A stretch of 64,000 nt of DNA, taken from Escherichia coli (GTDB lineage Bacteria; Pseudomonadota; Gammaproteobacteria; Enterobacterales; Enterobacteriaceae). The stretch is taken from assembly GCF_016903815.1 (NCBI RefSeq), contig NZ_CP069973.1, one strand, 5' to 3'. Made by a program: the position numbers. Every line of letters starts with the position of its first letter. The stretch's first letter is position 1. Below, one piece after another: positions 21,601 to 24,600 of the stretch.

Positions 21601-24600
21601 ATTCAGGGATGGCACGGGTAGAGGGCGAATTATTCAAAATTGCTCTGGCATCGCTGGAAGCAGAGCCAGTTGGTGATTTTTATGAATACAAACCGGATGA
21701 CTGGTATCAGCGTTCGGCTGGAGATAAAGCGCCAAAATGGACGCCACCCTATGCCGTTTTTCCAGCGCCCGTAGTGCCGGAAGAAATGGATTTGCTTACA
21801 TGCCATCTCGATGGTGTAACTGAAACATATGCTGAGGGATGGAACGCTTGCCGCGCTGCCCTGCTTCAGGGCAAAGGGGAGCCCGGGAAACAAGTTCGCG
21901 AATTGACAATGCTGGTTAAACAATTGGTTAGTCAACTGAAGAAACCGAAACCGGGCTGCAAATTGCCGGATAAAGTGATGGACTACCTGGAGCGAAGCGG
22001 ACTTATAAGCGTGGAGGATGTTTTACGATGACCTGGCCTGAAGCATTCACAACGGTAGGAATTGCGATGGCGGTGGCGCTGGTGGTGTATTCGATTTGCC
22101 GCTGGGGTTGATAATACTAAATAACCAGCCCTTATGGGGCTGGCTAATCATTTAGAACTGTTCATTGCCATCGAGGTTAGGTAGCATAATTTTTTCAATC
22201 AAGGCGAGAGCCTTTTTGTCCCGGTCAGCGAAGTATTTCGGGGCATATTGCGGCAACCAAATATTGTTAAAATGTTCTTTGAAATCTGCTAAATATTCAT
22301 TTGGGTACAGCCTTGCAGGGTATACGCGACCATCGGGATATTCATGGTCATAGGTAGGGAATGTTTTGGGTTCTACGTTTCTATTATCTCTTAACCATTG
22401 TGAAAATACTCTTCCTTGTGAAATGTCAGGAACCATTTTTTCTGGGAGTGTGTACCCTGCTTGTTCAAGAGGTGCAACCAAGTTGAATGTCAGTTCATTA
22501 AGAATAGAAAAGTGCGTGTGAGGAATTCTACTACGATTAACCATGTACCGTTTTAAATGTACAGGCATTTCTGCTGTAGTTCTTTCCCCTGACATCCATT
22601 CACGAACCCATCTTGAAACCTGGACTGCAAATTTGGGCGATAGCCACTGCGCTAGATTAATAGCGATGTCAGGATGCACCCATGTCCCTTGGTTTTCAGG
22701 TCTTCCACCTTTAAATGATTGAATTAACTCCGATATGGGAATTCCCATATCGCGTGATAATTCGTCAAAAAACTCTTGAGTAGTTTTGAGTCTAGTGTAA
22801 TCAGAGAGCAGTTTGCCCGCAGTTCTACACATTGATGTGGCGTTTATGTAACCATCTTTGGCACGTAAATGTATTATTTCGCCGTCAATTTCACGAGAAA
22901 TCAAAGATAATTGAAAGGATGTCATTGAAAATTCCTCAAGTTGGAGAGTTCTGGAACATTAAGGCGAGGTGGCAGTAATGCACCATCTGTAATCTTTTGA
23001 TACTGACGTAATCGGGCCTGATGTGCAACGCCTTGCAAGTATGTAACTCATTGAAAACGATCATTTTTATCTATTGACATCAAATGGCAAACTGTCATTG
23101 TGCGGCTATGGCAAGTGGCAAATGCTTATAAATCATATGGATATAAATAGTACAGAAAGAGTTGTTTTCTCTAGGATATGAGTATACGCCCAATGCTGAT
23201 TGGTTGAATTTTGTTCTTGTTTTAAAGGGTAAGAGTTTAAAGTGTTGGCAGTGATGTATTGGATAGTTAGAATTGCTGTGGGTGCTTGAGGCTATCTGCC
23301 TCGGGCATGAACACCAAAGGTAGATAGAGAAAAGCCCCAGTTAACATTACGCGTCCTGCAAGACGTTTAACATTAATCTGAGGCCATATCTATGCGACAC
23401 ATAGAGATTAGCCTCTTACGGACCGAAAGGTCAAGGAGAAGCAGGCTATGAAGCAGCAAAAGGCGATGTTAATCGCCCTGATCGTCATCTGTTTAACCGT
23501 CATAGTGACGGCACTGGTAACGAGGAAAGACCTCTGCGAGGTACGAATCCGAACTGGCAGACGGAGGCTCTGATTCGTAGACTACTAATCTGAGTAAAAG
23601 ACCCAGCGGGGAAAGAACCACGCCGGGACTAGTTAATAAGATATTTATAGCGTGGCTATTCTTTTTTTGCGGTATAGACTTTTTCGCCTGAGAAGTCTGG
23701 AGCTACCCAAAAGTTAATATTAAACTGAGCATCATCGCTTAGTTCAACACGGTGCCAGTATTGTGGTGGGCTTGTTGCAAAAGCGCCAGCATTAATGACT
23801 ACTTTTATCTCCGGTTCAGTAGCATTCTCATCAGCAAAACCATAATATGTTACAGTACCTTCCATCACGCATAACTGTCCAAAAACACCTGCTGCTGTAT
23901 TATGATGTGTTAATAACGCTGAAGGTACGTTCTCTTTTGTGAAGAACGGAGTTGAGCGTTTGATTACCCAGTCTTTAGGAATTCTCTTGTGTGTCATAAC
24001 CACCTCCCATAAAACATGCATTATAAATGCACCTTTTTGAGGGTTATGTCAAGCTGTTATGAAACACATAATTGATATGTTGATTAGAGGAGAAGATAGA
24101 ATCAATATGGTTGTTTTTCGTATAACTATTTGTTTTACTTTTAGTTTGTGCATTCTGTGTGTTAGGAATAACTTATTAAAGTTTAACTAAAAAATCTCGA
24201 TATAGTCCGCATAGATTACTGTTACTGAATCTTATTGTGTGCATTAGTTGTGTTCTGAAATTTCAATTTAATTACTTATGATATATTTTTAACGATAAAT
24301 GTTTTCCGGGTTAAAGACAGTGGGGGATGAGATAAGCAATATATCATTAATCTTGATTATTTCCAGGATGCCTTTACTGTGCATATAAATAAATCATATA
24401 CGCATCAAATAATGTAAAGGCATCCTTTTAGATATATCTTATCAAATGTTAATGATTTGAGTGGGAAACATGATTCCAGAAACTAATCATGCGGCTACTT
24501 TATAAAAATAATGCCCATATAAAACAGCCAGCGAAAAGGATTACGGATAAAAAAGGAGCGAGATGTGCATAGTTGTTATTTTCCATGTTTAACCACCTTA

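Follow-up and report, generated by a model that had tools for sequence, protein, structure and literature searches.

A Rac-type prophage of Escherichia coli carries a hokD/hokW-type hok/sok module with a frameshift-truncated toxin reading frame

A short Hok-like reading frame in Escherichia coli raises the question of whether it still encodes a toxin or is what remains of one. The frame lies in a stretch of 64,000 nucleotides (nt) of contig NZ_CP069973.1 (assembly GCF_016903815.1), here called the window, and a first-pass annotation had left it as either an inactivated hok or a variant. We found that the hok/sok assignment is real and far beyond chance and that the locus lacks three defining features of such systems: a complete toxin domain, the fold-back element fbi, and a terminator. 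By its alignments, the locus is a decayed hok/sok module of the hokD/hokW type whose toxin open reading frame (ORF) has been truncated by frameshifts. We put at roughly 80% the probability that the toxin is inactivated, with the 5' regulatory half of the module intact and the 3' half decayed. The coordinates of all features are collected in Table 1.

The toxin ORF encodes 41 amino acids (aa), MKQQKAMLIALIVICLTVIVTALVTRKDLCEVRIRTGRRRL, followed by a stop codon. It retains the N-terminal transmembrane (TM) helix and belongs to the Hok/Gef family, matching Pfam HOK_GEF (PF01848) with an E value of 3.2e-16 and 59.1 bits against a cut-off of 22. Residues 1 to 37 are those of K-12 HokD without a single difference, which confirms the match to the TM core of HokD/RelF noticed at first pass, and residues 38 to 41 (RRRL) are out of frame. 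The domain match covers positions 1 to 34 of the 42-position model, whereas intact HokD and HokW cover positions 1 to 42 (82.9 and 81.1 bits, respectively). The 8 of 42 positions that are missing account for approximately 23 bits and include the position equivalent to Tyr/Cys46. The C-terminal (periplasmic) part of Hok is thus incomplete, since the tail is read out of frame and translation stops before the TAC codon is reached; the ending in ...TGRRRL in place of the conserved tail had been read correctly. The ORF scored 34.8 bits with NCBIfam NF007279, whose cut-off is 73, and intact HokD (48.5 bits) and HokW (53.6 bits) likewise scored under it. NCBIfam was dropped as a formal test of HokD membership because intact HokD itself scores under the cut-offs. 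A PADLOC search with the Hok ORF and the neighboring DUF1971 protein gave no match.

Alignment of the locus to its relatives at the DNA level, a check proposed in the first-pass annotation, supported the option of an inactivated hok and identified two successive frameshift lesions as well as further changes. The coding DNA is the same as that of all intact relatives through codon 36 (alignments A1 and A2). The first frameshift is the replacement of 8 nt by 6 nt, which moved a HokW-like tail, ...QTEVAVFVDYESEK, to ...QTEALIRRLLI and is also the source of the present stop codon. The second is a 1-nt deletion that turns a 48-aa allele into the 41-aa allele. This 48-aa allele (P0002, ...TGQTEALIRRLLI) was found on three contigs from three assemblies, with the same 3' region and the same junction to DUF1971 and without the 1-nt deletion; alleles L010 to L012, which encode 48 aa, otherwise match the window through the 3' region (alignment A2). 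Since the 48-aa allele has the same junction and differs in the 1-nt deletion only, the order of events read from the alignments starts from a HokW-like tail, which a -2 frameshift converted to the 48-aa form and a subsequent -1 frameshift to the 41-aa form. Each of the 48-aa copies on the three contigs is a different haplotype, whereas the 41-aa allele is nearly uniform.

Beyond the stop codon, DNA homology to intact loci runs on with the frames shifted. Frame 0 reads IRTGRRRL-stop-FVDY-stop-SE-stop, compared with ...QTEVAVFVDYESEK-stop in HokW. Relative to the FVDYESEK of HokW, the vestigial tail has a GAA-to-TAA change and has lost one codon (3 nt), and the ancestral stop is found at 23595-23597. 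The GAA-to-TAA change also removes the TACG context of the Tyr codon, the context of the editing that yields Cys46 (PMC12214031). Alignments A1 and A2, together with the Pfam coverage, rule out a full-length member of another Hok subfamily, a possibility that had been named at the outset alongside a similarity confined to the TM segment; homology was found on both sides of that segment and past the stop.

The damage extends past the ORF. A search for the fold-back elements of the hok mRNA, also suggested at first pass, found neither an fbi nor a hok terminator. The fbi of intact loci (CCTCAACGCACCC) is absent, as is their combined fbi and terminator sequence (...CATCCTCAACGCACCCGCA...AACCCGCTTCGGCGGGTTTT), and homology to the hok 3' untranslated region (UTR) fades within the post-stop hairpin at approximately 23600 to 23625. 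No terminator was called by a scan, and by eye only a weak ATAGC-GTG-GCTAT hairpin followed by seven T residues was seen at 23645-23668. The place of the hok fbi and terminator is occupied by a DUF1971 module, which is present at 95 to 96% identity in approximately 350 genomes without an adjacent hok; homology to those genomes begins at 23662. At the junction, the 5' half of the hairpin resembles the post-stop hairpin of hok, and its 3' half is like the hairpin found 3' of DUF1971 in prophages that have no hok; from this half onward, the sequence is that of the DUF1971 module. Since a T-rich run follows this hairpin on the minus strand, it may serve as a terminator for DUF1971 transcription.

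Two features of the DUF1971/TehB-like gene itself were observed. Its last codons contain a run of seven A residues (A/T, 23662-23668), where relatives L010 and L019 have six and no DUF1971 gene is called. The C terminus of the protein also varies with context, reading ...TAKKE-stop in the window and ...TKK-stop in L006.

Either the fbi or the original reading frame of the tail may have been lost first, because no copy with an altered tail and an intact fbi was found: a search with 23540-23662 returned nothing at 90 to 99% identity in 5,426 E. coli genomes. All seven IMG/VR matches to the tail sequence carry the same junction.

In contrast to the 3' half, the 5' half of the module (hok promoter, tac, ucb, mok, and sok with its promoter) is, as judged by homology, intact. 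The -10 hexamer of the putative hok promoter, TAGAAT, is common to intact hokD/hokW loci and lies approximately 7 nt 5' of the conserved hok mRNA start (~23280). The Rfam model sok/hok-leader (RF01794) matched a segment of 171 nt over its full length (model positions 1 to 157) with 101.5 bits (against a gathering score of 59) and an E value of 3.4e-23. The leader boxes tac, ucb, and dcb and the Shine-Dalgarno (SD) sequence of mok were assigned from their pairing partners in minimum free energy (MFE) folds and from the plasmid R1 model (PMC9841398), and the expected tac/ucb and SD/dcb pairings are predicted. From the -10 hexamer to 23567, the identity between the window and hokD loci with an annotation as intact is 96.7%.

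The upstream short ORF noticed at first pass was confirmed as mok, with the translation MRHIEISLLRTERSRRSRL and a stop codon that overlaps the hok start as ATGA. At the sequence level, mok thus reaches the initiation region of hok. In R1, only the translation of mok as far as the hok start matters (PMC9841398). Intact loci L003 and L005 share this mok sequence; hence, a short mok ending in ATGA is the normal state of this hokD-type leader.

A cis-encoded antisense sok gene with a promoter and a terminator hairpin of its own could also be recognized in the sequence. The predicted RNA, read from 23398 to 23330, starts with a single-stranded tail whose sequence complements the SD and the start codon of mok and continues into a long terminator hairpin and a U-tract. 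Its predicted fold energy is -25.8 kcal/mol, compared with -29.9 kcal/mol for sokW, and a single base, located in the hairpin, sets it apart from the Sok of intact loci of the hokD type. A search for the sok antisense promoter, another suggested check, yielded the candidate pair TTGACC and GCTAAT. The pair was identified by inspection of the sequence and by where it lies with respect to the 5' end of sokW, and it is the same in intact hokD-type loci; it was not picked up by a strict consensus promoter scan. The locus probably still produces Sok.

Table 1. Positions of the parts of the hok/sok locus and of the adjoining module in the window
Feature	Position	Strand	Evidence or remark
Putative hok promoter (TTGGCA, 17-nt spacer, TAGAAT)	23245-23273	+	Consensus scan, 10/12 matches
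hok mRNA leader	23280-23450	+	Rfam RF01794
tac	~23280-23291	+	hok leader box
ucb	~23332-23338	+	hok leader box
Putative Sok antisense RNA gene, ~69 nt	23330-23398	-	Position homologous to annotated sokW of 933W (AF125520)
mok SD (GAGG)	23380-23383	+	
mok leader ORF, 19 codons	23392-23451	+	TGA stop overlaps hok ATG (ATGA)
Putative sok promoter (TTGACC, 23434 to 23429; 16- to 17-nt spacer; GCTAAT/CTAATC, 23412 to 23406)	23406-23434	-	
dcb	~23412-23415	+	
hok SD (AAGGAG)	23433-23438	+	
Truncated hok ORF, 41 codons/aa	23448-23573	+	RefSeq WP_001445775.1, 'Hok/Gef family protein'; TM helix and Cys30 kept
1-nt deletion, one C lost (GGC CAG to GGC AG), frameshift at codon 38	23558-23559	+	Alignment A2 versus L010-L012
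Complex lesion, CTCTGA in place of TCGCTGTC (8 nt to 6 nt)	23568-23573	+	Alignments A1 and A2 versus hokW and hokD
Vestigial HokW-type tail codons TTC GTA GAC TAC TAA TCT GAG TAA (FVDY-stop-SE-stop)	23574-23597	+	
Hairpin and junction	23598-23630	.	Alignment A4
DUF1971/TehB-like gene module	23656-24021	-	Pfam DUF1971, E = 3.5e-26; RefSeq start 23997

In R1, the full-length mRNA is kept closed by pairing of tac with fbi, and in this form the mok SD is masked by ucb; slow 3' processing later lets tac pair with ucb and the SD with dcb, after which translation and Sok binding can both occur (PMC9841398). The MFE fold of the intact hokD mRNA of strain MS6198 corresponds to the closed state: nt 1 to 12 pair with nt 375 to 387, and the mok SD pairs with nt 57 to 60 (ucb). 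For the window transcript, the MFE folds at all tested 3' ends from 23600 to 23760 are open, with the 5' end pairing with 23332-23338 and the mok SD pairing with 23412-23415, and none of these folds contains 5'-3' pairing. These folds predict that the window mRNA cannot form the dormant tac/fbi closed state. A substitute fbi was also sought 3' of the ORF with RNAduplex and rejected, as the best site (23685-23709, -23.2 kcal/mol) lay within approximately 1.3 standard deviations of shuffled controls. RNAduplex barely separates even the true fbi of intact loci, and whole-transcript folds were used instead.

The locus was compared with known hok/sok systems. One of the closest is hokW/mokW/sokW of the Stx2 phage 933W (AF125520), also present in O157 prophages, which is 91% identical to it over 344 nt. 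Both loci are prophage-borne and lie between the replication region and the nin/Q region, both have the same Sok hairpin and a Hok that is identical through residue 37, and the vestigial FVDY codons of the window are of the HokW type. However, 933W has a 51-aa Hok and an intact 3' UTR with fbi and terminator, whereas the window has a 41-aa ORF and neither element. In addition, mokW is an in-frame N-terminal extension of hokW, while the mok of the window has 19 codons, is out of frame, and ends in ATGA. Plasmid R1 hok/sok shares the architecture and logic of the window locus, with tac/fbi, ucb/dcb, mok coupling, and antisense Sok, yet its mok has 70 codons and overlaps hok (PMC9841398). Intact prophage loci of the hokD type (E. 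coli MS6198 and AVS0362; WP_000813254.1) have the same leader, mok frame, sok, and coding sequence (CDS) at the 96.7% identity given above, but these loci encode a 51-aa toxin, carry a canonical fbi and terminator, and are predicted to form the tac/fbi closed fold.

The comparison with hokD (relF) of the K-12 Qin prophage is of a different kind. Residues 1 to 37 of the protein and the DNA that encodes them are the same as in the window, and homology to the window begins only at 23434. K-12 hokD keeps the full tail, fbi, and terminator; it no longer has a promoter, tac, sok, or the start of mok, and it has relBE upstream. The window, which retains the 5' half and has lost the 3' half, is thus the complement of K-12 hokD. 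From these alignments, the relBE-hokD arrangement of K-12 is itself a rearranged form. No relBE genes are annotated within 6 kb on either side of an identical locus, in agreement with the first-pass annotation. Decay of chromosomal hok genes, often via the 3' end, is a known fate (PMC12214031; bioRxiv 10.1101/2025.08.07.668861). In K-12, hokA, hokC, and hokE were inactivated by insertion sequence (IS) elements and hokD by rearrangement, whereas in the window hok carries small frameshifts and a 3' UTR replaced by the DUF1971 module, with no IS insertion.

Across these relatives, the first ~108 nt of the hok CDS (23448-23555) are the same in the window, in hokD of K-12, MS6198, and AVS0362, and in hokW of O157, save for A or G at 23545. 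The flanking leader and 3' UTR differ by 5 to 10% among the same copies. Because the CDS is near invariant while its flanks differ, this pattern suggests a strong joint constraint by RNA structure and protein or, alternatively, frequent gene conversion.

On the reading that we favor, an inactive toxin, the picture would be as follows. The 41-aa peptide would insert into the membrane but would be nontoxic, owing to the missing periplasmic tail with the Tyr/Cys46 position needed for the disulfide of HokB toxicity. The disulfide between Cys29 and Cys46 is essential to HokB toxicity, and in hokD Cys46 is produced by editing of a TAC codon (PMC12214031; bioRxiv 10.1101/2025.08.07.668861). The Tyr codon equivalent to Cys46 is missing from the 41-aa ORF. 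Of the 20 stop codons that single substitutions can create in R1 Hok, 18 abolish toxicity, as do Y48N and C-terminal extensions (PMC9841398), and a Gef protein whose C-terminal region was swapped for PhoA was nontoxic, according to the work as it is cited in PMC8509063. Lacking fbi, the mRNA would fold straight to the open state, with tac/ucb and mok-SD/dcb pairing, where it would be bound at once by Sok and exposed to RNase III. Because the window transcript adopts the open fold at every 3' end examined, we infer that no dormant mRNA pool would form, and, therefore, that postsegregational killing would not be possible. Loss of fbi may have come first and favored the frameshifts that inactivated the toxin.

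Several points weigh against an inactive toxin. The TM helix, SD, ATG, and Cys30 are intact in the 41-aa ORF, and several type I toxins are shorter than 41 aa; on these grounds, residual membrane activity of the 41-aa peptide is possible. The two stop codons outside the 18 of 20 in R1 Hok are at positions that PMC9841398 does not name. The MFE folds are predictions, and the RNAduplex energies of tac against downstream sequence did not clearly set the window apart from shuffled controls. If transcription reads through to 23850, the MFE fold has a weak alternative 5'-3' pairing at 23827-23841. That segment (plus strand) lies inside the DUF1971 gene, and with this pairing the mok SD goes back to ucb in a closed-like fold; the pairing is, in this model, probably fortuitous. 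Finally, the 41-aa allele is found on at least 1,000 contigs, compared with 3 for its 48-aa precursor, and together with at least three different upstream sequences. Its abundance could be explained by clonal sampling but also by retention.

The distribution of the allele was examined further. The 41-aa allele is present in 2,444 index blocks, and the 3' region that carries the allele is present in 103 of the 5,426 complete E. coli genomes. The allele also occurs in three phage records and in five of the seven IMG/VR loci with the tail sequence, the stretches of the other two being too short for the ORF to be read. In two assemblies (L014 and L017), the same 41-aa ORF is found with the whole leader and sok replaced, and Rfam gave no sok match in either. 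Persistence of the ORF in these loci without its leader or sok fits a harmless product. L014 and L017 (~3700-4126) are Rac variants in which a truncated DUF1627 gene precedes the ORF, other sequence stands in place of the hok promoter, tac, and sok, and the genes for BstA, DUF977, and hypothetical proteins are missing. Their breakpoint is just upstream of the hok ATG, near the position of the relBE-hokD junction in K-12.

Could the truncated ORF instead encode a functional short-tailed Hok, with a TM helix and a basic RRRL end that is still toxic to the membrane and is restrained only by Sok? Promoter, leader, mok, SD, ATG, and TM helix are all intact, the allele is widespread, RefSeq lists the protein rather than a pseudogene, and the product passes the filter of at least 40 aa in a recent Hok catalogue (bioRxiv 10.1101/2025.08.07.668861). 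However, the tail is the out-of-frame product of two frameshifts, with vestigial in-frame codons after the stop, and eight conserved Pfam positions (~23 bits) are gone from a part of the protein that R1 Hok, Gef, and HokB need (PMC9841398, PMC8509063, and PMC12214031). L014 and L017 still carry the ORF although they lack sok, and a toxic product without fbi would be badly controlled. We consider such a toxin unlikely.

Alternatively, the toxin remnant may be irrelevant and Sok kept as an orphan antitoxin that neutralizes the hokD or hokW mRNAs of other prophages and plasmids and so serves anti-addiction or cross-immunity, a reading that can coexist with inactivation of the toxin. In its favor, sok and its promoter are practically the same as in intact loci of the hokD type, carrier genomes have several other hok-like places (for example, four in NZ_CP023820.1), and loci of the hokD type are common on plasmids and Stx phages. 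Nevertheless, there is no sign of selection, for which near-identical copies give no power, and L014 and L017 lost the sok part but kept the ORF. This role for Sok is improbable.

We also see little chance that the module has been rewired, with an fbi-less, always open, Sok-sensitive hok mRNA that encodes a short Hok or serves only to produce Sok, and that it is kept beside the BstA abortive-infection gene for phage defense or for cross-immunity against phages and plasmids that carry hokD or hokW. A sequencing or assembly artifact (for example, a homopolymer error) in an otherwise intact hokD has next to no probability given the population data. Although one lesion is a single-base loss in a GGCC run, the same sequence occurs in approximately 100 complete genomes from many laboratories, 3 phage records, and at least 1,000 contigs, and restoring the base still yields a frameshifted 48-aa product without fbi or terminator.

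The module lies in a Rac-type prophage. Positions 9545-37660 of the window are 100% identical to positions 1 to 28116 of ON470614 (vB_EcoS-666R9), the comparison having covered the first 28,116 nt of that 38.7-kb record. The record represents a Rac-type prophage described from clinical E. coli that produce carbapenemases (bioRxiv 10.1101/2022.06.29.498070). The prophage begins at ~9545, with an integrase gene at ~9610-10845 (minus strand); if it is colinear with ON470614 onward, it would end near 48253. The gene order is int, ydaQ, ralR, recT, recE, racC, kil, sieB, repressor/cro, ydaT, O/DnaC-like, DUF1627, DUF977, the BstA homologue, hok/sok, DUF1971, DUF1367, YbcO, Q-like, the lysis genes, and trkG. 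Unlike K-12 Rac, the prophage keeps its middle and late regions. In other lambdoid prophages and in Stx phages, this position is taken by intact hok relatives, and the cargo 3' of hok is variable there: rem, a YgiW/YdeI-like gene, or DUF1971.

Other genes were noted in the window. The gene that directly precedes the hok locus (22152-22925, minus strand) encodes a homologue of the prophage-borne abortive-infection defense protein BstA, identified by matches to Pfam KilA-N (E = 4.3e-27) and PADLOC BstA (E = 3.2e-21) and by a precomputed BstA_C match; RefSeq labels it only as 'KilA-N domain-containing protein'. The prophage has a second type I toxin-antitoxin pair, in which the RalA small RNA (sRNA) (Rfam RF02694, 225 bits; 11166-11344, plus strand) adjoins the RalR toxin gene (~11388-11537, minus strand; position derived from the offset to ON470614). 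The FnrS sRNA lies in the chromosomal flank at 6739-6856 (plus strand; Rfam RF01796, 134.8 bits).

The locus is an ordinary gene in decay, not a novel type of toxin; textbooks already cover chromosomal hok copies that have been inactivated, and this one opens no new question. Its importance is mostly one of annotation hygiene, as the 41-aa product appears across thousands of assemblies as an intact 'Hok/Gef family protein'. Because a frameshift remnant without fbi is annotated as intact and passes the filter of at least 40 aa, counts of 'active' prophage Hok toxins may be slightly inflated. In addition, the alleles of 51, 48, and 41 aa, with or without fbi and with or without sok, form a clean natural series with which the parts of HokD and the hok mRNA required for killing could be identified.

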